The position numbers and the translations under genes are program-made. Source: a virus (taxonomy: Duplodnaviria; Heunggongvirae; Uroviricota; Caudoviricetes). Taken from it: DNA of 14,573 nucleotides. The notes under the pieces are model-generated. The model was not told the origin of the DNA. It worked only from the letters and a program-made list of their open reading frames with translations, and searched no databases. Position 1 is the stretch's first letter. Each line of letters begins with the position of its first letter. Below, one piece after another: positions 1 to 12,881 of the stretch. The stretch lies in the IMG/VR virus record IMGVR_UViG_2645727715_000004. The stretch is one strand, 5' to 3'.

Positions 1-320
1 ATATCCGGAGTAATCCATGCATCGTATAGACACGAAAACCGCGCAGAAGGATAAGTTCGGCGCGGGTAAGAACGGTTTTACCCGTGGTAACCCCCAGATC
101 GGCACGCCTGCCACCGATCTGGATGATGACTACTTTGACATGTTGCAGGAGGAGCTTTGCAGCGTTGTGGAGGCGTCCGGTGCCAGCCTGGAGAAGGGGC
201 GGCACGACCAGCTACTTACCGCGCTTCGCGCGCTGCTGTTAAGCCGCAAGAATCCGTTTGGCGATATCAAATCGGATGGCACGGTGAAAACGGCTCTCGA
301 AAACCTTGGTTTGGGAGAAG
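1..320. repeat. Left arm of a 320-bp perfect inverted repeat; carries the RBS and first 101 codons of the tail-fibre gene; outer end coincides with the window edge
   Basis: Reverse complement of 2194..2513 checked base by base at both ends and over 1..114; ORF-track translations at 17..445(+) and 1697..2497(-) are identical for 101 aa. Identity ends at 320/2194. Confidence 0.95.
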
Positions 321-681
321 CGGCAAAACGGGATGTGGGTAACGGGCAAAACCAAATTCCTGATATGTCAGCGTGGGAGTGTGGGGGAGATACAACGACG
401 GGATGGAGGCGAAGCCGGATGGTTATATTGAACAATGGGGGCTAACTGGGGCCACAACAAATGAAGTTTTGATTAATTTTCCTATCCCATTTCCGACAGC
501 CGTCATTTCTATTAATGAACATGACCAGGCTCCTGTGGCAGGGAAAATGTCAGTATGGCAATTCTATAAATTGACTAACTCAAATGTCATAGCAGAGAAC
601 CTGGGATCTCTTGATAAAGGAAATCCATCCTTCAATGTTCCAACTGTCGCTGGTTGCCGCTGGTTTGCTACAGGAAGATAA
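17..681 (+). CDS. Alternative tail fibre protein (S'-like): shared 101-aa N-terminus plus a distinct C-terminal domain; reading frame interrupted by an apparent 1-nt deletion somewhere in 364..445
   Basis: ORF 17..445 shares its N-terminus with the minus-strand fibre; ORF 373..681 (frame open from 364) continues in the -1 frame with a plausible fibre-tip sequence; SD GGAG 7 nt upstream of the ATG at 17; stop TAA 679..681 immediately before the Tfa' start. Confidence 0.6.
294..319 (+). other. Candidate serine-invertase crossover site (hix/gix/cix-like), left copy
   Basis: CTCTCGAAAACC-TT-GGTTTGGGAGAA: 12-bp imperfect half-sites around a 2-bp core with the AAACC/GGTTT core of Hin/Gin/Cin/Pin sites (compare hixL TTCTTGAAAACCAAGGTTTTTGATAA, from memory). 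Lies at the inner boundary of the repeat. Confidence 0.55.
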
Positions 682-682
682 A

Positions 683-1123
683 ATGAGTAAATATCTTTAC
701 GATGCTAAAACTAATATGTTTTACCCATTTACTCTGGAAAGTCAGTATAAGGAGTCTGGGTTATGGCCTCATAATGGAGTTGAAGTTGATGAGGATATAT
801 TTATTAAGTACCTGTCCCCACCTCCAGGGAAGGTGAGAGTTGCGGGTGATGATGGCTATCCTGCATGGGATGACGTACCGCCGCTAACTCATGAAGAACA
901 ACTGTCAGAAGCGGAACGAAAAAAACAGACACTCATAAATCGAGTTAATGAATATATTAACAGTAAGCAGTGGCCAGGAAAGGCTGCTATTGGTCGTCTG
1001 AAAGGTGAGGAACTGGCGCAATATAATTCATGGCTTAATTATCTGGACGCACTGGAAATGGTTGATATTTCCAGTGCTCCAGATATTGAATGGCCTACGC
1101 CTCCGGCTGTTCAGGCCAGATGA
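683..1123 (+). CDS. Tail fibre assembly protein (Tfa/U'-like chaperone) for the alternative fibre
   Basis: ATG at 683, two nt after the fibre stop; N-terminus MSKYLYDAKTNMFYPF and C-terminal motif SAPDIEWP are typical of the enterobacterial phage Tfa family. The 611 start of the ORF track overlaps the fibre frame and is rejected. Confidence 0.75.
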   Translation: MSKYLYDAKTNMFYPFTLESQYKESGLWPHNGVEVDEDIFIKYLSPPPGKVRVAGDDGYPAWDDVPPLTHEEQLSEAERKKQTLINRVNEYINSKQWPGKAAIGRLKGEELAQYNSWLNYLDALEMVDISSAPDIEWPTPPAVQAR

Positions 1124-1697
1124 TATCCGGCGCGGTGCTGGTATCTGTTGCCGTCACCGCGTCAATGTAATCCAGCACGGCGTTAAGTCGGGTTGTTTCT
1201 GCCTGCGTCAGCTTCCGCCCGGCCTGCAATTTCAGTTGAATCAGACTGATGGAAGCCATTGCAGCATCAATCAGCGACTGGCGCTGTGCTTCTGCCGCTT
1301 CTACTGCGGCGCTATGCTGTGCCTCGGTATCCGTCACCCATTTCTCACCATCCCATTTATCGTATGGCGTTAACGGGGCGATAGTGGTTGTATTTTCAGG
1401 ATAATCACCCGGAGCTGTGATTTCTTTCGATTCTCCTGTTTCGGTGCTATAGATGATTTCACCGCGATGGTCTGGCACATATTCCCATGAGTTAAAATCT
1501 GCAGAACGGCAGATTGCATAACCAGCTTTATGTGTAACTGGTGCATCTAAACAAGAACATGCCGGGATACCGACGCCAACCGCAAGATATTCAGTTGATG
1601 TGGAAATATATTCCCGCGTTTCACCATCATAATTATAAATGGTAATGACTCCCGCTTTTATGGCAATGAGTTCGTTATTTAATACGGCTTTATTCAT
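1095..1697 (-). CDS. Tail fibre assembly protein (Tfa/U-like chaperone)
   Basis: 200-aa ORF directly downstream of the fibre gene; C-terminal motif DTSTAPDIIWPEQP resembles the conserved Tfa C-terminus of E. coli prophage TfaE/TfaR-type proteins (from memory). Confidence 0.8.
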   Translation of the reverse strand: MNKAVLNNELIAIKAGVITIYNYDGETREYISTSTEYLAVGVGIPACSCLDAPVTHKAGYAICRSADFNSWEYVPDHRGEIIYSTETGESKEITAPGDYPENTTTIAPLTPYDKWDGEKWVTDTEAQHSAAVEAAEAQRQSLIDAAMASISLIQLKLQAGRKLTQAETTRLNAVLDYIDAVTATDTSTAPDIIWPEQPEA

Positions 1698-2497
1698 CAG
1701 GCAGCCCTCACGATATAATTAAAGGCAATGTTACGAGGACGGTTTTCGTTTGCAGTTGGAACAATTCTTGAAGCATCAAGGCCAATCACTTTTGGGTAAA
1801 CAGCGCCATCTGTTCTTTCTGTCACCATACTTCTGATTAAGGAGAAATAACTATTGTTCGTTGAGGGGTTCAAAGGCACTACTGCCCCCTTAAACGAGCC
1901 TACTGATTCCCATATTGAATAATTTTCGGTGTTTACAGTCTTGAACTCACCATAGATATTACGTATGGCATCGCCCTGAGCGGATAATATTGCCCTCCCC
2001 GTATCCATACCACGTCCGTCATCCCAGCCACGAATAAACTCACCACGTAAATCAGGCAATTTATTTGTCGGGTAAGCCTTTGCCAGCTCCGGGTATTCTT
2101 CAGCAGAAAAAGCTGCTCCGTTGCATTTCAGCCAGCCTGTTGGCGGAGTGGCTGAAGGCCACGGAACAGGCACCCCAACAGGTAATGCAGAGCCTTCTCC
2201 CAAACCAAGGTTTTCGAGAGCCGTTTTCACCGTGCCATCCGATTTGATATCGCCAAACGGATTCTTGCGGCTTAACAGCAGCGCGCGAAGCGCGGTAAGT
2301 AGCTGGTCGTGCCGCCCCTTCTCCAGGCTGGCACCGGACGCCTCCACAACGCTGCAAAGCTCCTCCTGCAACATGTCAAAGTAGTCATCATCCAGATCGG
2401 TGGCAGGCGTGCCGATCTGGGGGTTACCACGGGTAAAACCGTTCTTACCCGCGCCGAACTTATCCTTCTGCGCGGTTTTCGTGTCTATACGATGCAT
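1697..2497 (-). CDS. Tail fibre protein (S-like), currently operon-linked orientation
   Basis: 266-aa ORF; constant N-terminus of 101 aa inside the repeat, then a [22 protein letters not shown] collar-like segment and C-terminal tip; start overlaps the gp48-like stop. Confidence 0.85.
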
Positions 2498-2513
2498 GGA
2501 TTACTCCGGATAT
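2194..2513. repeat. Right arm of the 320-bp inverted repeat; the operon-proximal tail-fibre 5' end plus the last 16 nt of the upstream gp48-like gene
   Basis: Exact reverse complement of 1..320; at 2514 it continues into gp48-like coding sequence that is unique in the window. Confidence 0.95.
2195..2220 (-). other. Candidate serine-invertase crossover site, right copy in inverted orientation
   Basis: Reverse complement of 2195..2220 is identical to 294..319. Confidence 0.55.
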
Positions 2514-3085
2514 TTAAAAATTACGTAGGTATGCGACGGGCAGAGTTTGTTAAGCACACATTCGACAACTGTGTCGCCCCAGATACGCAGTGCGGAATCA
2601 CAGGGATCGCCACATGTCATCCAGGTGGTGTTGGTGGCGGCTGGCATGTTGACCTGCCAGTAATACCGCCATTCAGGCGCGTTCACAGCGTCAGTACAGG
2701 CCGATGAGCAGGTGAACGTGCTTTTGTCGTATCGCGTGATGGTGGCATCTGGTCTGCCCAGGGCAGCAAGCTGTGCAAGATAAAAATCCTCGTTGATGCC
2801 GCCCGCCAGGTTAACCTTCGCATCCAGCCGTTGCTGACGCTGGCGAAGGGTCTGTGTCCCTGCGGGAATACATTCATCCGGCAGACCGCACAGACGCTCC
2901 CAGCGGTTTATCAGTTCAGTGGTGGTGCGCGGATCCAGCTCCCGCATCAGGGCATCCGCACGCTGATGAACGCGGGTTAATGACGGTGCCGCACCGGCAA
3001 TCGCCGGATCGCTGGCTGACCACGCCGGACCGGGGGGCAACAGTGCCGACAACAGACGGATGTAATCATCGTTTGTCACGTCCAT
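2501..3085 (-). CDS. Baseplate/tail protein, Mu gp48-like (P2 gpI-like family)
   Basis: 194-aa ORF in the conserved position between the J-like baseplate gene and the fibre; start overlaps the upstream gene's stop. Confidence 0.65.
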
Positions 3086-4134
3086 GAAATCGTCCCCAGT
3101 ACCGCCAGTTCATTTTTTGCAATGGAGATATTGTCTGCCGGTGCAAGCAACTGATGGCTGTATTCCCCGTTCGCACCGGAAATCGCCTCACTGATACGCG
3201 ATACCTTCAGTTCTCCCTGCGGATAACCATCACGCAGCAGGAACGAACGCAACTCCGCGGTGATGGCAGCCCGTATTTCCGGTGTGTCTGGCGTTACGCG
3301 GATATGAAAATCCACCGTATGCGCCACCGGCCTGAACACATACAAATCAGAGCCTGCCACCGGGGCCAGTGGCTCAATGTGTTGTCTTGCCGCCGTTTCC
3401 GTTGATTCTTCCGGAATGGGATTAATCAGGTCACTGCTGGCAATCATCACACCGACAGTTCCCGTTCCCATCCAGTGACGGTATGTCCATGCGCGGGTAA
3501 TGCCGGGCACTTCTTTAGCCCAGACGACATAGTCCCCGTCAGCCCCGCCCTGAGGCGTCCAGTAATACCGCTCAATGACGCGGGCGCGCCACGTTTCCAG
3601 ATCTTCAGTATCGAATCCGCCAGTCAGGGTATCTGCAACACCGGAAGACGGCAGACCATTCACCGGCGTGACCAGGATTAATGCCGTACCGTCGTCAGCG
3701 TTACCGACCGCGCCTGCACTTGAGCAAGTGATCGGCACGCGCAGGACACCACCGGAGCTGGTTGCATCAGCAGTTGCCGTGTATTGAACCAGGTCAGCGC
3801 GCTGAATCACGCTCCCGGCGGTCACCTTCAGGCCATCGCTGACACCTTCCCAGCGCATATACCCGCTGGCAGCCGTGGCCCCCTTGCGCGGACACCGTTT
3901 CATCGCAGCATGTCGCGCCAGCCAGGACGCATCGCACAGGTCAGGCAGCATGTTCATTGCCAGATAATCGATGTACCCGTAAACCGTATGCAGCGCCGCC
4001 GCATACACCTTTGCCCGCACGTCTTCATCCATGCGCCGGAGCGTGTCGCTGACGTCCAGCCTGGCGAATAAATCGTTACGGAGCATACTGATATTTTCTG
4101 CCAGCGTCGGGCGCTGAAATTCACTGTCCGCCAT
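3076..4134 (-). CDS. Baseplate J-like protein (Mu gp47-like)
   Basis: 352-aa ORF; size and position match the baseplate wedge J family in Mu-like tail modules. Confidence 0.75.
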
Positions 4135-4550
4135 GCGTTATCGCACTCCACAGATCATCAAAAGAAATCATTACCGGTCCGTCACGACGCCAGAGGGTGA
4201 TACTGTTACCCAGCTCATTAATCCCGGTGCGGCGGATATCCAGATCAATACGGGACACCACGCCGTCATCAGTCATCCATTGGAGGCATTCGCGGATATA
4301 CCCCCTTACTGTCTGCACCAGCTGATTGGTCAGTTTGCTGCGCTGAAGCAGCCACAGTCGGGAGCCGTAACGGTCATTCTGTCACCGCAGGCCAGGTATC
4401 CCCCCACCATCCCATCGGGACGTCGGCGTTGTCATCAGGCTCCGCCCGCCGCCAGGTAAACAGGGAAATCACCACGGCGCGGGTCAGCGGATCCAGCGGT
4501 GCGCTGGCGCAGGTGCGTTTACCGTTCACCGTCAGCCACAGTTCCATCAT
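4121..4550 (-). CDS. Baseplate protein, Mu gp46-like (gp25/GPW-like), interrupted by a frameshift near 4374..4382
   Basis: ATG at 4550 opens a 58-codon frame ending TGA at about 4376; the +1 frame continues (QNDRYGSRLWLLQRSKLTNQLVQTVRGY...) to the stop at 4121. Combined length about 143 aa matches the family. Confidence 0.55.
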
Positions 4551-5095
4551 GCCTCCATCGCTTTATCAGGTTTGTCGGTGTTACTGCCCTGACCGTTCTC
4601 TCTGTGACGATGCCCGTTATAGGCAAGCCGCATCGCTGACATGGTAGTGCCGCCGGAGTCGCACAGGTCTTTCACCTGTCCGGTCACTTCCAGGTCCATT
4701 TCAAAACGTGCTTCAGGTGCATTGCGAAACGTGATCGTTTTCCCTGCACCGTCCACCACGATCCCTTCCCGGGTCAGTGTCACGGACTGCCCCTGATCGT
4801 CATAGACAGCCACCTCCCCCGTCTGCAGCCCTTTCAGGCGGTAGCGCCGGTCCGACACCGTAACAACCACCGCATGAGAACGGTCGCCATCCGGAAACAA
4901 CACCACCGCTTCCGCACCGCTGTTTGCCCTTGCGGTAAAACCGTAGGGTTCAAGATGCTCAACCCTGGCTTTGGGTTCACCGGCAATCAGGGACACATCC
5001 ACGGTCTGACATTTCGTGGCGGCACTGATGCTTTTCACCACTGCCCGCCCAATCAGGCCGAGGAGTTGTCGCTGCATGGCTTCAATCGTCCTCAT
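4547..5095 (-). CDS. Baseplate assembly protein V-like / spike (Mu gp45-like)
   Basis: 182-aa ORF; start overlaps the P-like stop (ATGA); size and position fit the gpV family. Confidence 0.75.
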   Translation of the reverse strand: MRTIEAMQRQLLGLIGRAVVKSISAATKCQTVDVSLIAGEPKARVEHLEPYGFTARANSGAEAVVLFPDGDRSHAVVVTVSDRRYRLKGLQTGEVAVYDDQGQSVTLTREGIVVDGAGKTITFRNAPEARFEMDLEVTGQVKDLCDSGGTTMSAMRLAYNGHRHRENGQGSNTDKPDKAMEA

Positions 5096-6174
5096 CAGAA
5101 CGGGTCCTCCTGTACTCTGGCTTTTTTCTTTTTCCGCGCACCGGGATCTTCGGGTTCAGGCAGATAAGCATCAGGCGGGCCGACACGGATTTCCGTCAGG
5201 GTGCCGTTCTGGTCCTGAGTAAACGTGACTTCCGAGACAAGCAGTTCGGTATTGTCGAAACCACAGACCGGATCGAAGACAATCACCCGCTGGTTGGGCT
5301 GCCACAGCGTACCGTTACCCTGTCGCCAGCCCTGCACCACATAGGTGGTTTCATCCGTCCGCGCCGCCCGTTGTCGGGCTTCAAAGTCAGCACGGGCAAT
5401 ACAGCCTGCCCCCGTGGCCTGCCCTGTCTGCCTGATATACATCGGACGGTAACGGGCAATAAATGCGTCCTCTGTGCGGGCCCGCAGCGCGGTGGTGGTG
5501 GCCTCACCGAAATCATCGTCGTTTCCGGCACGCTGCCCCGCCACCTGGTAAACAGAAAACCGCTCCCGGATACTCTTCTCCGTATCGCAGGAAAGGATGT
5601 TTTCCCCAAGTACCAGCGCGGTATGTGCCCGCGTTGAGCCAATACCGCCAATCACCAGCCTGCCGTGCGGGTCGTCGTAAGCCAGCGCCTGCTGCTGACC
5701 GAGTATTTTGTTGATCACCTCAATCACCGTTTCACCGTGATCAGGCTGGACATCAGGAATAACACCAGACGGCGCACCGCTGTTCACCACCTCAATGCCG
5801 AAAGGCGCAGCAAGCGCCTGCGCAATCTGAACCAGCGATCGTCCGTTAAACTGTGTCGGTTCGGCTGCACAGTCAATCAGGTCAGCGGTCAGACTACGCC
5901 CAGCAATACCGGTGCTGACCGAACGGGCATCGTAACGAACGGGAGTCGCCTCCACCCAGCCGGTGATCACCAGCTCATCACCAATCAGCACTTCCACTTT
6001 TGAACCGTTTTTAATACGCGGCTGAAGCGTGGTGATACCCTCATCTCCCGGCCACTGGCGGGTGATCTCCACACTGAAATCCCGCGTCAGCCGTTCAATA
6101 CCGGCACCGATGCGCACCGATGTCCAGCCATTCCACTCCCGGCCATTTACCCGTAGCGTGACGTTATCATTCAT
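5095..6174 (-). CDS. Tail protein, Mu P-like (P2 gpD-like baseplate hub)
   Basis: 359-aa ORF, N-terminus MNDNVTLRVNGREWNGWTSVRIG typical of Mu P / gpD-like tail proteins; follows the N-like gene as in Mu. Confidence 0.75.
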   Translation of the reverse strand: MNDNVTLRVNGREWNGWTSVRIGAGIERLTRDFSVEITRQWPGDEGITTLQPRIKNGSKVEVLIGDELVITGWVEATPVRYDARSVSTGIAGRSLTADLIDCAAEPTQFNGRSLVQIAQALAAPFGIEVVNSGAPSGVIPDVQPDHGETVIEVINKILGQQQALAYDDPHGRLVIGGIGSTRAHTALVLGENILSCDTEKSIRERFSVYQVAGQRAGNDDDFGEATTTALRARTEDAFIARYRPMYIRQTGQATGAGCIARADFEARQRAARTDETTYVVQGWRQGNGTLWQPNQRVIVFDPVCGFDNTELLVSEVTFTQDQNGTLTEIRVGPPDAYLPEPEDPGARKKKKARVQEDPF

Positions 6175-7499
6175 AGCACTGGCACCTTCAGAGGGATCAC
6201 CGGCACAAAGCCGGGATGCGTAATGGCATTACGCCGGATAATGTCCGCGTCACGCGCCGCGTTATCAAACCAGGTCGCCGCCAGCACCAGCGCGGGTAAG
6301 ACCTCATCCGGCGTGCGCTGAATGATCCGTGCAGACTGTTCAAGGCGCGTGTTGATATCCGCATTCAGATCTGCTTTCACCCGGCGCAGCGCCAGAAACA
6401 GCGCATCACTGGTTGTACGGGACAACTCCTTATCAATTGCCGTATTCAGTGTGTCGCGAATGTCAGTCAGTTCTTCCCACGTCGGCAGGTCAACCGTGTT
6501 TTTCACCGCCGGTGCATTGTTCAGTGCCGGATGCGTGACGGAAGGCCAGCCGGTGCTCTGCGCGGGTGTTGTTGACTGCCCCACTGCGGCATTCTGCATC
6601 ACCGCGGAAATTGTTGGCGCAGGCAATCGGGTGATGGCATACGCCGCTTCGCTGATTGCGGTCGTACGAAGGGTGCTGGCAACCACGTTACGCTGCTGCG
6701 TTGCCGTGGCGGTGGTTTTACTGTCCGTTTTCCAGACGCCGCGCGGTTGCAGATCGCTGCCGAGGCTGACACCAGAAAGCGTTTTGATCATGGTGACCAG
6801 GTCGCTGGCGTTACCATAAAGGCGCTTCCCGGTACGCCACATTTTCTGCACCTGCTCAACGAAATTTTTTCCTGACGATGGCGGCGGCAGAAGTACCGAG
6901 ATATCCCCCTGCAACAGCCTGGCGGCATCCGATACGGCAGAATCCACCACTTTCATCGCATCAGAAACATACCCCAGCATTGTGCTGGCATTACCGATAA
7001 CGTCGTTCTGTACGAAACCCGCCACGCCATCGATACTGAAACCACTGAAGCTGTCACTGATGCAGTCATCCAGCGCAGAACAGGATGACATCAGCGTCTG
7101 CGCCGTCGCCGCGCCTGATGTGGGGTAAGAGAGTTCTCCCGCTTCGACAAACTTCAGGTCAAAGCGGACAATACGCCCTTCACTCTTCGATGTGCTGACC
7201 CGAACTTCCCCGTCAACACAGACTTTCAGCTCACCGTATGTCGGGTGGACAAGCATGCCGGGACCGGGTTTATTCAGCGCTTCAATCAGGCGATCGCGCT
7301 GGTCAAAGCAGTCATCTCCCACCACATAAGCCGTGATGGACGGGCGGAAAGTGATTTTCCCCAGGTCTTCGGTATAGGGTTTGTCGCGGTTCGGGTATTC
7401 GTGTGTTTCCACACGACGACCGGTTCCCGCACTTTCTTCTTCAACCTTAAACGGCACACCGCGAAATGACGCGTCCTGAAGTCTGTCTTTCCACGTCAT
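6171..7499 (-). CDS. DNA circularisation protein N-like (Mu gpN family)
   Basis: N-terminus MTWKDRLQDASFRGVPFKVEEES is characteristic of Mu N-like proteins. Start placed at the ATG at 7499 rather than the 7541 start of the ORF track, which would run into the terminator hairpin. Confidence 0.8.
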   Translation of the reverse strand: MTWKDRLQDASFRGVPFKVEEESAGTGRRVETHEYPNRDKPYTEDLGKITFRPSITAYVVGDDCFDQRDRLIEALNKPGPGMLVHPTYGELKVCVDGEVRVSTSKSEGRIVRFDLKFVEAGELSYPTSGAATAQTLMSSCSALDDCISDSFSGFSIDGVAGFVQNDVIGNASTMLGYVSDAMKVVDSAVSDAARLLQGDISVLLPPPSSGKNFVEQVQKMWRTGKRLYGNASDLVTMIKTLSGVSLGSDLQPRGVWKTDSKTTATATQQRNVVASTLRTTAISEAAYAITRLPAPTISAVMQNAAVGQSTTPAQSTGWPSVTHPALNNAPAVKNTVDLPTWEELTDIRDTLNTAIDKELSRTTSDALFLALRRVKADLNADINTRLEQSARIIQRTPDEVLPALVLAATWFDNAARDADIIRRNAITHPGFVPVIPLKVPVL

Positions 7500-7514
7500 A
7501 TAAACTCCGTACAT

Positions 7515-7536
7515 AAAAAATCCCACCGGAGTGGGA
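7515..7536 (-). terminator. Possible weak intrinsic terminator / attenuator between tape measure and N-like gene
   Basis: On the minus strand: 6-bp stem TCCCAC/GTGGGA with 4-nt loop, followed directly by TTTTTT (plus-strand A-run 7515..7520), in a 60-bp intergenic gap. Confidence 0.4.
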
Positions 7537-7559
7537 CTCATTAACAGATTAATTTTTCA

Positions 7560-9393
7560 TTACCTGCCAAAGCGCGTATAGCCAACATCATGGCTGACAT
7601 CAAAACCGCTGGATCGCGTTTCCATAACCCGCATACCCGGAGGCGAATTCACAAAAGAGACCTTGATCTCACCATCAACTTTTGGCGCAGAAGCTTTGTT
7701 AATCATGAAGGGATTCGGGCCTGTGGCATCGGAGGCGTTGTTTGATTGAGCCGGATCTACCGCCGGATAAGGTGTGTATCCCCGCGCCGGTATTCCCGTC
7801 CCATAAGCATCATAAGCACCCGCGCCCCACTGCGCAGAGTTAATGGCATCGACCGTGTCACCGGAACTGTCGGTAAACCACTCAATAATTGGCTTCAGCT
7901 TGTCCCACATATCCTGAAACCACTTAACAACCGGTCCCCAGTTATTGATCACTATCCCCAGCGGCGACCAGGCAAAAACCTTCTTAAGAAGTTCCCAGCC
8001 AGCCTCAAAATAAGGACCAATGGTTTCCCAGAGTTTCTTAAAATAAGGTCCGACAACATCCCAGTTAGTGATAATTAATCCCGCAGCCAGGCTATCGCCG
8101 TCGCAATCATGCCAATCGGCGTCATCGACATAATCCTGCTGACAATACTGATGGCACCGCCAACGCCCATCAATCCCAGTTTCAGAATCGCAAGACCGGC
8201 AGCAAGCCCGACGACGCCGCGAATAACCCGGGGATTTTCATCCGCAAACTTCGTGAATTTTTCCCCTAACTCCCCCAGCCATTGCGTGATATTTTTGGCG
8301 TCACCAGAAAATGCGCCGCCAATAGCCGCAAGGCCGTTAGTTGCGGTCCCCGTCATTGCCTCCCACAGGTTGGACAGCGTTCCAAGCTGGGCCTGAACAC
8401 GTTTATTCAGGCTGGCCTGTTTATTCATCTTCTGCTGGATCTGATCGTAGCCATCCTTTCCTTTATCGATTAGTGCATTGACCACCTGAAGGGTTTCGGC
8501 ATCATCACCAAATATTGCCTTAAGTACACCTGTTCGCTTAACGTCTGTCAGTTTTCGCAGCTTTGCCAGTTGCTTAAACATGTTATCAAGACCGCCAAAA
8601 CTCCCTTTGCCGTCAGTAAAATCGAGCTGCACTCCGAGTTTCTGGCGGGCCATGACTTTATTGACGTCCCTGATTTTCTTAACGCTTAATCCGGACTGGA
8701 TAACTTTTCGCAGGGCATTACCTGCCGACTCCCCGTTCATCCCCATCTGATCCATCATGACGCTGATAGGGGCAAGGCTCTGTGCAGCCTGAAGTCCGTC
8801 CTTATTCACCATCTTCAGAACAGAACTGGTTTTAGTGAAGAAGGACAACATGTTGGTATCGTCAACGCCCAGATAAAACGCCTTCTGGATAGTGTCGAAC
8901 AGCCCCATCATGTCTTCTGACGCCGTTCCGGTAGCATCCTGCATCTTTGCAGCAAACTCAGCAGCCGCTTCCGGTGTTTTTTTCAGTTGTACCGCAAGAT
9001 AAGCTGTCGCTTTACCCACACCACCAAGAATGTTTTCTGCCGGGATCCCTGACGCACCAGCATCTGCATCATGTTCTGGAAATCAGCCGTTGTACCGGGT
9101 AGCTGGTTACCCAGGCCAATAGCCAGTTTATTGATGTCCTGAAAGCTCTTTCCAACCTCGCCGTTCGCATCCATCATAGCGACTTTCAGCCCGGTGGCGG
9201 CGTTTTCCTGATCAGCATAAGATTTCAGGGAAAGCGTCAGACCCGCTGCCAGTCCGCCACCAAGCGCCAGCCCACCCTGTGACGCTTCTTCCGCCTGGCG
9301 TTTAAATCCCCGGATTTTCTTTTGCATTTTCGACAGCGCGGGAGAAAGCCTGTCGACACCGGTGATCAACGCCTTAAGCTCAAATTCAGCCAT
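7560..9393 (-). CDS. Tail tape measure protein, interrupted by two apparent 1-nt deletions (about 9042..9054 and 8071..8080)
   Basis: Three consecutive minus-strand ORFs (8983..9393, 8075..9019, 7560..7952) form one roughly 612-codon reading frame if one base is restored at each junction (VRQG|IPAENILGG and WLRD|LIITNW). Shows the hydrophobic segment and W-rich C-terminal repeats typical of tape measure proteins. Confidence 0.7.
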
Positions 9394-9804
9394 GTGTGCG
9401 TTTCTCCTGCTCTATCCTGTTTGCCTGACTGACCAGCAAGGGAATTTCACTGATCGGCATATTCAGCAATTCGAAGGGATTAATGCGCCAGTAGCTGGCG
9501 CAGTCAAAGAAGCGATCAGTGAGGTATTCAGCCGTCAGGCCTGGAGGAAAAAACCAGCCACAAGCCACGCCGCTGCATTCAGGTCTGCCGGAGACATCTG
9601 GTCGACAGAGCTTTGCGGCACTTTCGCCAGCCGCACAATGTATTTCGACACCACATGCGCCAGAAGTCTGACGGACTCATCCTGATTCATCTGGTAGGGA
9701 TACCCCAGCTCGCGGACATCCTTCCCGGTGGGCTCATCAAACTCCAGTACGGAGAGTGTCTCACCATGAGCGATAATCGGTTTCTTTAACTCAAGCTCTT
9801 TCAT
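9386..9804 (-). CDS. Tail assembly chaperone frameshift fusion product (gpGT / gpE+E' analogue) made by programmed -1 ribosomal frameshift
   Basis: The -1 frame ORF 9386..9568 overlaps the 3' end of the chaperone ORF and ends 8 nt inside the tape measure start; slippery heptamer T_TTT_TTC lies in the overlap. Confidence 0.65.
9535..9804 (-). CDS. Tail assembly chaperone (lambda gpG / P2 gpE analogue)
   Basis: 89-aa ORF between tube and tape measure genes; carries the slippery site at its 3' end. Confidence 0.75.
   Translation of the reverse strand: MKELELKKPIIAHGETLSVLEFDEPTGKDVRELGYPYQMNQDESVRLLAHVVSKYIVRLAKVPQSSVDQMSPADLNAAAWLVAGFFLQA
9547..9553 (-). other. Slippery heptamer T TTT TTC for the programmed -1 frameshift
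   Basis: Minus-strand codons GGT TTT TTC in the zero frame; plus-strand gaaaaaa at 9547..9553. Confidence 0.6.
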
Positions 9805-10160
9805 TACTGGTAATCCCCTTCTTCACCGTGGAACTCAAGATCAACCGTGCCTTCTTCGGCATTATGGTTCGCTTCTCCGTGCAGCCAGGCGGACGACAAT
9901 ACATAGACCTGACCGTTCGCCAGCTCGGCAGTGATAGTCATCTCATCAGACGAGGTGATTTTGTTCACCGGAAAATTCTTCGGCACCTTGAAAGTCCCTT
10001 TGACATAAGGCGCACGGTGAGTTTCCTTGCGGTCCACTGAACCGTCCAGGCCGATGATGTCATCATTGACCGTCCTGTTCATGGGCACCTCAATGCCGCC
10101 GGTCAGCGATAGCTGTTGACCGTCAATTTTGAAATAACAGGTTCCCCCGATACGGGCCAT
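9804..10160 (-). CDS. Tail tube protein (Mu gpM-like)
   Basis: 118-aa ORF immediately downstream of the sheath gene, start overlapping the sheath stop. Confidence 0.75.
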   Translation of the reverse strand: MARIGGTCYFKIDGQQLSLTGGIEVPMNRTVNDDIIGLDGSVDRKETHRAPYVKGTFKVPKNFPVNKITSSDEMTITAELANGQVYVLSSAWLHGEANHNAEEGTVDLEFHGEEGDYQ

Positions 10161-11656
10161 TATGCAGACTCCTCTGAATACTGAAGACGGAACTGGTTAA
10201 CCACGGCAAAGACACGCAACTGGTTAACATAGTCAGGCGGGAACAGCGTGTTCAGGCGGTTCGGATCGCTGGCATCACGCTCCACAACCAGGTACTGCTT
10301 AAACAGTTCGTAGTTTTCCACGATCCCCGCACGCTCAAGCTGACGGTAGGTTGCCAGCAGTTCCCCTTTGATCACCGCCGGTGTGACAATCGCCTGACCG
10401 GGACCAAAGCGGGTACCGTCGCTGGCAAGCTTGTGACGCCCGTACTTACTGGTAATGACGGATTTCAGTTTGCGCAGTACATACGCGCTGGTATGCAGCG
10501 TCTCGCTGTCGAGGTAGCTGTTATCCGCAACACCGTAAGCGTTTTTCCTGTACGTGGTGACATCACGCTGAATGCGCAGCACCCCGCTTTCGACATACGC
10601 CGTTGCCACGCCATGAGACAGCAGGGTCTGTTGTTCGGTCATCGTGAACCGTTTCCCCTTCGGCGCAGGCAGCATACCCACCAGTTCACCGGTCTGCGTG
10701 GGACGTGCCGGATCGTTGCGAATAAACACCGCTGCGCGGGCGGTACGGCTTGCCGCCAGCTCGTCGGCAGGCGTCTGGGTCTCTTTTTCGTATCCCGCCA
10801 GGGTAATGTGCTGCTGGTTAAACTGGTCACCTGCGGTCACCAGTTCTGACAGCGTGCCGGTCTTTGCCGTATACACATGACCATACAGCTGACGCGCATA
10901 GCTCCAGCGACCGCTGGTATCGTTCATCTCGGTCACCAGCGTGTTAACGGAGGCCGTGTCGTTGAACGGCAGGCCGATATAATCAAACGGCTCATCCGCC
11001 ATTGCAGCCACCGCGCCGGTGAGAACCGGAGCGCCCGTTCCGGCGATCCCCGTCGCCACGGCAATCTGTACGCCCGCTGGCAGCACTTCGCCCCCACCAA
11101 AGCCGTAGTAATTGAGGCTGACAGGAATTTCATTCCCGCAAAGCCCCTTATGACGCGCGGTCAGTGTGACCACGCCTGCCGAAGATGAGGCAGTAAACGG
11201 CAGGGTCGGAACGGCATTGATGGCATCTTTGATACTGCTGGCAATCGTCGCGACGTTATCGCCGTTGGTCACCGGTGCCTGCACGCGGGTACGTCCCACA
11301 TAAACATTCACCGTGCCGGTTTCGGTTGCCGCGCCGGTCACCGTCAGCGTAACTGTTGCCGCCGCGCCCGTGGATTCAGGAACGGCAATCACATACAGTT
11401 CACCAAACGGGTCGGTCTGGCGATAAGCCTCGACCATACGCGCCAGCTGACTTCCCGCACCACAAATCTGGCGTGCATAGTCTGCCGATGGCATCAGCAC
11501 CAGACTGTTGGCAACAATCTCTGCACCGTTATTGGCATGACCAATCAGCAGCGATGCTCCGCTGTCCTGTGCAGTATTCGCCGCCGAGTTATCCATTTCC
11601 GCATAAAAAATCGGAACCAGCGTATTCGACGGAATGGTGTTAAAGCTTATCGTCAT
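10160..11656 (-). CDS. Contractile tail sheath protein (Mu gpL-like)
   Basis: 498-aa ORF, N-terminus MTISFNTIPSNTLVPIFYAEMDNS typical of Mu-like sheath proteins; followed by tube and chaperone genes. Confidence 0.85.
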   Translation of the reverse strand: MTISFNTIPSNTLVPIFYAEMDNSAANTAQDSGASLLIGHANNGAEIVANSLVLMPSADYARQICGAGSQLARMVEAYRQTDPFGELYVIAVPESTGAAATVTLTVTGAATETGTVNVYVGRTRVQAPVTNGDNVATIASSIKDAINAVPTLPFTASSSAGVVTLTARHKGLCGNEIPVSLNYYGFGGGEVLPAGVQIAVATGIAGTGAPVLTGAVAAMADEPFDYIGLPFNDTASVNTLVTEMNDTSGRWSYARQLYGHVYTAKTGTLSELVTAGDQFNQQHITLAGYEKETQTPADELAASRTARAAVFIRNDPARPTQTGELVGMLPAPKGKRFTMTEQQTLLSHGVATAYVESGVLRIQRDVTTYRKNAYGVADNSYLDSETLHTSAYVLRKLKSVITSKYGRHKLASDGTRFGPGQAIVTPAVIKGELLATYRQLERAGIVENYELFKQYLVVERDASDPNRLNTLFPPDYVNQLRVFAVVNQFRLQYSEESA

Positions 11657-11810
11657 CGGTATTCACCTTTTCATTCACGCGCCGGATATCACCCGCTGCT
11701 TCACGGCGCAGCCAGTAGTTGTTCTCATCAACATTTCGCCCCTCGGCGGGCAAAAGGTCGCCGCGGGCAGGGTCAGGCACTGACCGCCCTTTAACAGGTT
11801 TCACAAACAT
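11640..11810 (-). CDS. Small ORF (56 aa) upstream of and overlapping the sheath start; not in the supplied ORF track
   Basis: Hand translation: ATG at 11810 nine nt after the preceding gene's stop, MFVKPVKGRSVPDPARGDLLPAEGRNVDENNYWLRREAAGDIRRVNEKVNTDDDKL, stop TAA 11640..11642. Fills the otherwise empty 160-bp gap. Confidence 0.45.
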   Translation of the reverse strand: MFVKPVKGRSVPDPARGDLLPAEGRNVDENNYWLRREAAGDIRRVNEKVNTDDDKL

Positions 11811-11818
11811 GAAGATTC

Positions 11819-12379
11819 TCAGGAAGGAAGGGTTATTTCGGTGTGATGTTCGATATCGCCGTCAGGCCCGTTACCGGGATCGAGATAATCAACATCAATC
11901 GCCAGCGTTCGCAGTTCATCCAGACTGTTCAGGTCATCCTGCTGGCGGGTATCGTCTTCGGTCAGCTCGCTGATGACCGAAAAATCGAACTGATAAATCA
12001 GCTCATGACGATTCAGATCCAGCAGCGTGCCGCCGTCATAGGTAATCGGGTTACCGCACGCTTCCGGGTTCCAGCCCAGCAGGGCCTTAAAGAGCATCTG
12101 CCGGACATCGTCCACCACATCATACGAAGCAAACTGACCGCGCTCATCACGCCCGTTACTCAGTATGACAACCACGGAGAAGCCCTCTTTCAGCTCCTGC
12201 CAGTAGTCGGTCTGGCTTTTGTTTTCTCCCGGAGAATCATCACCCGGTACAACATATGCCGCCGGGAGTTTCAGCTTTCCGACCTCCGGCAGATTTTTGA
12301 ACTGGGCCGCGCCTGCAACCCGGTTTTCAAAATACGGACAGCGGGCACGCAGTGCAGCAATAACAGGCGTCAGTTTCAT
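11819..12379 (-). CDS. Putative neck / tail-completion (tail terminator-like) protein
   Basis: 186-aa ORF between the gp10-like neck gene and the sheath; function assigned by position only. Confidence 0.45.
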   Translation of the reverse strand: MKLTPVIAALRARCPYFENRVAGAAQFKNLPEVGKLKLPAAYVVPGDDSPGENKSQTDYWQELKEGFSVVVILSNGRDERGQFASYDVVDDVRQMLFKALLGWNPEACGNPITYDGGTLLDLNRHELIYQFDFSVISELTEDDTRQQDDLNSLDELRTLAIDVDYLDPGNGPDGDIEHHTEITLPS

Positions 12380-12881
12380 CTGTGTCGTCGCTCCGGCTTC
12401 AGTGATTTACGCAATTCCCGCGCCAGAAAATAGCGTGTCCAGCTGCGGTTCTTTTCAAGCGTTTCCACCATGAAGTTATTACGTGGAGCCAGTCGCCAGC
12501 CGCTGCCACCGGATGCACCACGATGATGGCTGCGACGACGCTTTGCCCCTCGCCTCACGCCATAGAACAAAAAAGCCGGATAAAAATCACCGGTGATACG
12601 GCGGTTTCCCTCTCCATTACGCTGGTTAGGGGCTATACGTGCCATAAAACCAGGGCGATGTTTACTGGCTCTGGGTACCATGTAACCAATCGAACGAGCC
12701 AGGCGTCCGGTCTGATAACCGGGGTTTTCACCCGGTGCCGACCGCGCACGGCGCATCACCAGCGACGGGCATCACGCATATGACGCTGACCAATCGTGAC
12801 AAACGCCCGCCGGACACGGGCGCGGTTAAAGCGCATCTCCGCGGGCTGCTGAAAATCAACGTGCAAAAAGGAAGTCGTCAT
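12376..12881 (-). CDS. HK97 gp10-family head-tail joining protein, interrupted by an apparent 1-nt deletion near 12757..12766
   Basis: ATG at 12881 gives MTTSFLHVDFQQPAEMRFNRARVRRAFVTIGQRHMRDARRW then stop; the -1 frame continues as VMRRARSAPGENPGYQTGRLARS... to 12376. Restoring one base makes one roughly 168-aa protein. Confidence 0.55.

Follow-up and report, generated by a model that had tools for sequence, protein, structure and literature searches.

A textbook pixL crossover site at the constant/variable junction of an invertible prophage tail-fibre gene in Escherichia coli D92/09, and the probable assembly origin of the long inverted repeat around it

The window analysed here, 14,573 nt in length, is the entire WGS contig LEKZ01000190.1 of assembly GCA_001038025.1, which belongs to E. 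coli D92/09. This strain was sequenced on the Ion Torrent PGM from a 400-bp fragment library (399,241 reads, 16.5× coverage) and assembled into 343 contigs with the Torrent "Assembler" plugin (PMC4588619). The minus strand of the window carries a Mu-type tail operon, in which genes for the sheath, tube, tape measure, gp45, gp46, baseplate J, and gp48/YmfQ lead into a gene for a 266-aa tail fibre. The YmfQ/Mu gp48-family baseplate protein (2501–3085, minus strand; PF10076), annotated as ymfQ in relatives, is encoded directly upstream of the fibre gene. The fibre expressed in the contig orientation (1697–2497, minus strand) is an ORF with a match to Pfam PF07484 and consists of a constant part joined to a variable part, Sv, with a Collar domain. 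Its assembly chaperone (1095–1697, minus strand) is an ORF of 200 aa with the Pfam domains Caudo_TAP_N and Caudo_TAP.

On the opposite strand, an alternative variable part, Sv′ (321–681, plus strand), was found with a gp53-like C-terminal domain; it is covered by two ORFs, 17–445 and 373–681, and PF21882 was detected on the orthologue in contig L004, the nearest relative. An alternative tail-fibre assembly chaperone, tfa′ (683–1123, plus strand), has a Caudo_TAP domain, was given a start at 635 by the gene caller, and has annotated orthologues in the complete genomes PEC422 and MIN10, which carry the same prophage proteins. The segment at 308–2206, about 1.9 kb between two crossover cores, thus holds two alternative fibre C-termini and their chaperones, arranged head-to-head. 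A Collar-domain fibre and a Caudo_TAP protein on the minus strand, a gp53-like C-terminus and a Caudo_TAP protein on the plus strand, and ymfQ upstream are the gene content of an e14-type invertible P segment. The locus is the tail fibre of an e14/SfII-like prophage with a Mu-type tail in E. coli D92/09.

Several reading frames in the window are interrupted. At 414–416, CCC in PEC422, MIN10, and L004 is CC in the window, and this frameshift splits Sv′ into the ORFs 17–445 and 373–681. A change of this kind is a typical Ion Torrent homopolymer undercall, and Sv′ is probably intact in the strain. An extra C is present at 4383 in comparison with PEC422 and MIN10, and the gp46 gene (about 4121–4550, minus strand) was called at 57 aa in the window versus 141 aa in those genomes; this is likely to be another sequencing frameshift. 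The tape-measure region (7560–9393, minus strand) is broken into three ORFs of 136, 314, and 116–130 aa, which suggests further frameshift errors in the draft contig.

The crossover sites were read directly from the sequence. CTCTCGAAAACCTTGGTTTGGGAGAA is located at 294–319, and its exact reverse complement, TTCTCCCAAACCAAGGTTTTCGAGAG, is located at 2195–2220, confirming the stated positions of the site and its partner. The 26-bp layout of the Din family is present, with two 12-bp imperfectly symmetric half-sites (TTC---AAAC- and -GTTT---GAA) around a 2-bp core. The curated compilation of Din-family sites in PMC3241671 (Table 3) gives TTCTCCCAAACC-AA-GGTTTTCGAGAG for the pixL of E. coli e14, and the window site is identical to it at 26 of 26 positions. 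Identity to the other curated sites was lower: 21/26 for pixR; 20/26 for hixL, cixL, and cixR; and 18/26 for gix. The assignment of a Hin/Gin/Cin/Pin-type crossover site in the original prediction therefore agrees with the alignment to curated sites, and the complete match indicates that the site is pixL itself, beyond merely "hix/gix-like". pixL is the long-known crossover site of the e14-type invertible tail-fibre switch of E. coli, so both the site and the locus were already known.

The pixL site at 2195–2220 (plus strand; TTCTCCCAAACC-AA-GGTTTTCGAGAG, core AA at 2207–2208) marks the point where, about 96 codons into the fibre gene, the constant N-terminal part gives way to the variable part; the gene is read on the minus strand. 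The same site and flank are also present in PEC422, MIN10, L004, and the e14 element of MG1655. The second pixL copy (294–319, minus strand; core TT at 306–307) is the reverse complement of the first and joins Sv′ to a copy of the constant region. Its outer half is of the pixL type, with C at 305, whereas L004, PEC422, and MG1655 have the pixR type (G) at this position. Most likely, the copy at 294–319 is the same physical pixL site captured in the other orientation state.

We also considered whether the resemblance to invertase sites could be a chance palindrome within a coding repeat, with no role in recombination. Short AAACC..GGTTT palindromes can indeed arise randomly; at up to one mismatch, AAACCNNGGTTT matched three places in the window where 0.47 would be expected, and the sites at 294–319 and 2195–2220 account for two of them. 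However, the full 26-mer at up to three mismatches occurred at these two places only and in none of 200 dinucleotide-preserving shuffles. Together with the complete identity to pixL and with natural inversion isomers that break exactly at the site, as described below, this makes a chance origin so improbable that it was discarded.

In the deposited contig, the two sites are embedded in a perfect inverted repeat of 320 nt (1–320 and 2194–2513; 100% complementary), which is the only long repeat in the window. As had been noted, the sites sit at the inner edge of each repeat arm in this sequence, leaving 293 nt of repeat outside each of them. The outer part of the right arm (2221–2513, minus strand) is the genuine constant region. 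It comprises the end of ymfQ (stop codon at 2501–2503), a short spacer, the fibre start codon at 2497, and the constant N-terminal codons, continues unbroken into the 12-kb tail operon, and is collinear with PEC422, MIN10, L004, and e14. The outer part of the left arm (1–293, plus strand) is a reverse-complement copy of 2221–2513 with 100% identity. It spans the ribosome-binding region, preceded by the final 13 nt of ymfQ and followed by approximately the first 93 codons of the constant part of the fibre, and it occupies the place where related genomes carry the outer half of pixR and pin.

The left arm starts at contig position 1. Because position 1 of the window is the physical end of the contig, this arm is truncated by, and was probably created at, the contig end. 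pixR (TTCTCCCAAACCAACGTTTATGAAAA) was not found in the window at up to three mismatches. Two inverted sites therefore bound the segment, but each is pixL and each is flanked by constant region; the contig stops short of any true partner. No Resolvase-domain match was detected among the genes called on window 1–12497; the absence of an adjacent invertase gene is explained by the contig end.

Inversion at this site was examined in related genomes. In PEC422 and MIN10, the segment of about 1.9 kb lies in opposite orientations, showing that the two genomes are inversion isomers. In PEC422, Sv is joined to the constant region through pixL, and Sv′ to pinE through pixR; in MIN10, the partners are swapped. 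From the first base past the AA core, which is G in pixL and C in pixR, the outer half-sites diverge, and both remain with their own flank. In this way, the exchange between PEC422 and MIN10 was mapped to an interval of 15 nt that covers the AA core and the 12-nt inner half-site plus a single shared base; because the inner half-sites are identical, natural isomers cannot resolve the exchange to a single base. Hin and Gin make 2-bp staggered cuts at the core by an established mechanism, and a 15-nt interval that includes the core fits such cleavage. Dependence on Fis and supercoiling was assumed for the window site from the biochemistry of Hin and Gin.

Both orientation states were also seen among complete genomes. 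Among the best 60 complete-genome matches to window 1–2513, 23 reach 2513 and start at 301 or later, and 22 start at 1 and end at 2213 or earlier; both states are common, with alignments that break at the site. Taken together, the comparative evidence from relatives, rather than from this strain, indicates that the site is functional.

The reference loci have a different end structure from the window. PEC422, MIN10, L004, and MG1655 e14 each contain exactly one pixL, at the constant region, and one pixR, at pin; pinE is adjacent in PEC422, MIN10, and MG1655. L004 (contig CBDFVF010000082.1) encodes an identical 266-aa fibre and is 99.89% identical to window 301–4079, with three mismatches, one of which is the pixL/pixR C/G difference at 305, and one homopolymer gap. 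L004 departs from the window exactly at the core: to the left of window position 306, it continues into the outer half of pixR and a pin remnant, and the constant region is present once only. At 3762–4100 of L004, pixR is intact, pin is cut to about 41–42 codons, and a GmrSD-family gene follows on the other strand. The pin remnant still aligns with cin, gin, and pinE over about their first 124 nt, a part that includes the sequence annotated in P1 as the Cin enhancer. Inversion in L004 might persist if another prophage gives an invertase in trans.

We then searched for the deposited structure elsewhere. None of 5,426 complete E. coli genomes covered at least 80% of window 1–2513 at one place, and both arms around one segment were found in 0 of the best 60 complete E. 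coli genome matches. At megablast sensitivity, the constant region was not found on both sides of the cassette in any of the 5,426 E. coli genomes or 50,697 phage records; in either orientation, all matches stop at 301 or 2213.

These results bear on the original prediction in two ways. It had predicted that strands are exchanged where the constant and variable parts meet, leaving the N-terminus outside the exchanged DNA, and the swap between PEC422 and MIN10 within 15 nt that include the core upholds this. It had also described a 293-bp duplicated N-terminus flanking the segment on both sides and a second, RecA-dependent route to inversion through the long repeats. The duplication was not reproduced, since PEC422, MIN10, MG1655 e14, and L004 all have one pixL and one pixR. 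As for the second route, two distinct copies of at least 293 nt were not seen in the complete E. coli genomes, and L004 has a single copy; the RecA route is left without support because it depends on a duplication that appears to be artefactual.

The presence of two pixL and no pixR, the position of the left arm at a contig end, the pin found at that end in relatives, and the lack of any complete genome with both arms lead us to favour a chimera created during assembly where this low-coverage draft contig ends, in which the same pixL junction would have been captured from the opposite orientation (probability about 0.85). Under this model, the Pin invertase, a Din-family serine invertase, would pair pixL with pixR, cut both at the 2-bp core, and invert the segment of about 1.9 kb, so that a single constant N-terminus of about 96 codons is fused alternately to Sv and its chaperone or to Sv′ and its chaperone. 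For the strand-exchange chemistry at the core, we infer the mechanism established for Hin and Gin. The chromosome itself would then carry pixR at the distal end of the segment, with pin or a pin remnant beyond it. To extend the Sv′ end, the assembler may have used reads from DNA in the other orientation state, in which Sv′ is joined to the constant region, until no unused reads were left some 300 nt on; this would have produced a spurious perfect repeat of 320 nt that stops at the contig end. An arm of this size, about 300 nt, matches roughly the length of one long read, and a homopolymer frameshift is present in the same contig. A culture of mixed orientation is the probable origin of such a chimera. 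A point against it is the truncation of pin in L004: if D92/09 is alike, both orientations could coexist in a culture only if another prophage provided an invertase in trans.

The truncated pin of L004 gives some weight to another source of the chimera, since it makes switching within the culture less likely unless an invertase is supplied in trans. Two prophages with near-identical segments fixed in opposite orientations could have been collapsed by the assembler, with each end of the segment receiving the constant region of one prophage. The E. coli genomes that hold the cassette have a median of two, and up to 10, matching places, and the cassette is common to P2-like and other phages. However, the right arm runs unbroken into 12 kb of unique tail operon with no sign of a collapsed two-copy repeat, and a single contig of the D92/09 assembly was found to encode exactly this 266-aa fibre. 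Moreover, the arms are 100% identical over 320 nt, whereas the constant regions of different prophages are typically about 3% apart; the constant region of the window is 96.9% identical to that of PEC422 and to that of e14. We regard a collapse of two prophages as unlikely.

Still less probable, in our judgement, is that the 320-nt arms are physically real in D92/09, with the constant N-terminus and the start codon duplicated head-to-head and two pixL sites at the inner edges. The deposited sequence does show exactly such a structure, and it could have originated, for example, in a Pin-mediated fusion of pixR and pixL between two oppositely oriented prophages; deletion between pixR and pixL would leave a hybrid site of the pixL type, as seen here. 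If the arms were true, the 5′ end of the fibre gene (ribosome-binding site, start codon, and about 96 codons) would be duplicated, both variants could be encoded in full simultaneously, and the DNA between the arms could undergo inversion by homologous recombination. Against this, Din invertases are generally known to disfavour deletion or fusion reactions strongly, and we know of no Din system with long repeats outside its crossover sites. None of the 5,426 complete E. coli genomes searched has both arms around one segment, and the relative L004, 99.9% identical, has pixR and a pin remnant at the end in question. In the window itself, the arm stops at the end of a contig from a low-coverage draft, with no pixR in the window and no invertase among the genes called on 1–12497.

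The assembly chimera that we favour has a practical consequence. In draft assemblies of invertible segments, contig ends may fold back on the constant flank. Such a fold-back mimics long perfect inverted repeats and "duplicated" 5′ ends of genes, and it can mislead automated repeat finders as well as readers who work from sequence only. Two features give the artefact away: a repeat that touches the contig end, and the same outer half-site on both sites (here, two pixL and no pixR). The biological significance is small, since the site is a textbook pixL and the locus works like the G segment of Mu and the P segment of e14; the lesson is methodological.

Among known systems, the closest counterpart is the P segment of e14 (pinE, pixL/pixR; stfP-tfaP / tfaE-stfE), whose pixL is shared with the window at 26/26 positions. 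The gene order in MG1655 (ymfQ-stfP-tfaP / tfaE-stfE-pinE) is that of the window, namely ymfQ, the constant N-terminus, pixL, and a C-terminus with its chaperone facing the second chaperone and C-terminus. The constant-region flank of e14 is 96.5–97% identical to the window, and pixR and pinE follow in PEC422 and MIN10 as they do in e14. The variable cassettes are partly different: window 968–1745 is 89% identical to e14, whereas Sv′ is without a match. The Mu-type tail operon is complete in the prophage of the window, e14 itself being a remnant, and the window contig, unlike e14, has a second pixL and constant region in place of pixR and pin, a difference that we attribute to assembly.

The G segment of Mu (Gin, gixL/gixR) follows the same logic, with the constant part of S outside, the site at the Sc/Sv junction, and two S/U cassettes head-to-head, and the window has a Mu-like tail and baseplate module (gp45, gp46, gp47/J, and gp48). 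The true inverted repeats are short in both, 41 nt at 93% in Mu and 20–21 nt in the relatives of the window. The two differ in the site (gix matches at 18/26, and the core is GA in Mu but AA in the window) and in the length of the constant part, which is about 170 codons in Mu (959–1467 of our Mu record, L007) versus about 96 in the window.

The C segment of P1 (Cin, cixL/cixR) resembles the window in having a Din-family site (20/26), in switching host range through the tail fibre, and in being associated with long repeats. In our P1 record (L006), the repeat lies at 715–1350 and 4357–4992, with crossover at 725/726 and 4981/4982; the 636-nt repeats (98%) are inside the segment, with cix at their outer ends, whereas the arms of the window are outside the sites. 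A P1-like architecture was rejected for the window because the P1 geometry is the opposite. Hin acts by the same serine-invertase mechanism, with a Fis-bound enhancer. The hix sites of Salmonella have the same 26-bp half-site layout as the window site (hixL, 20/26), but Hin/hix, a flagellar switch, acts on a promoter rather than on alternative 3′ ends of a gene, and no Hin-type context was found in the window.

Parts of the locus were also recognized in other phages. In P2-like phages (pro483 and P2 from O157:H43 T22), Citrobacter phage Omnitron, and Klebsiella phages, the cassette matched from site to site (295/301 to 2208/2219) at 87–93%, with unmatched flanks. It therefore seems that the invertible cassette travels from one tail module to another, unrelated one as a unit delimited by its crossover sites. 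In the Shigella serotype-converting phages SfI, SfII, and SfIV, the constant N-terminus of the fibre and ymfQ are 96.8% identical to window 2194–3100, and the match stops at 2194, the inner edge of the site; these phages therefore share the constant part of the fibre but not the cassette of the window.
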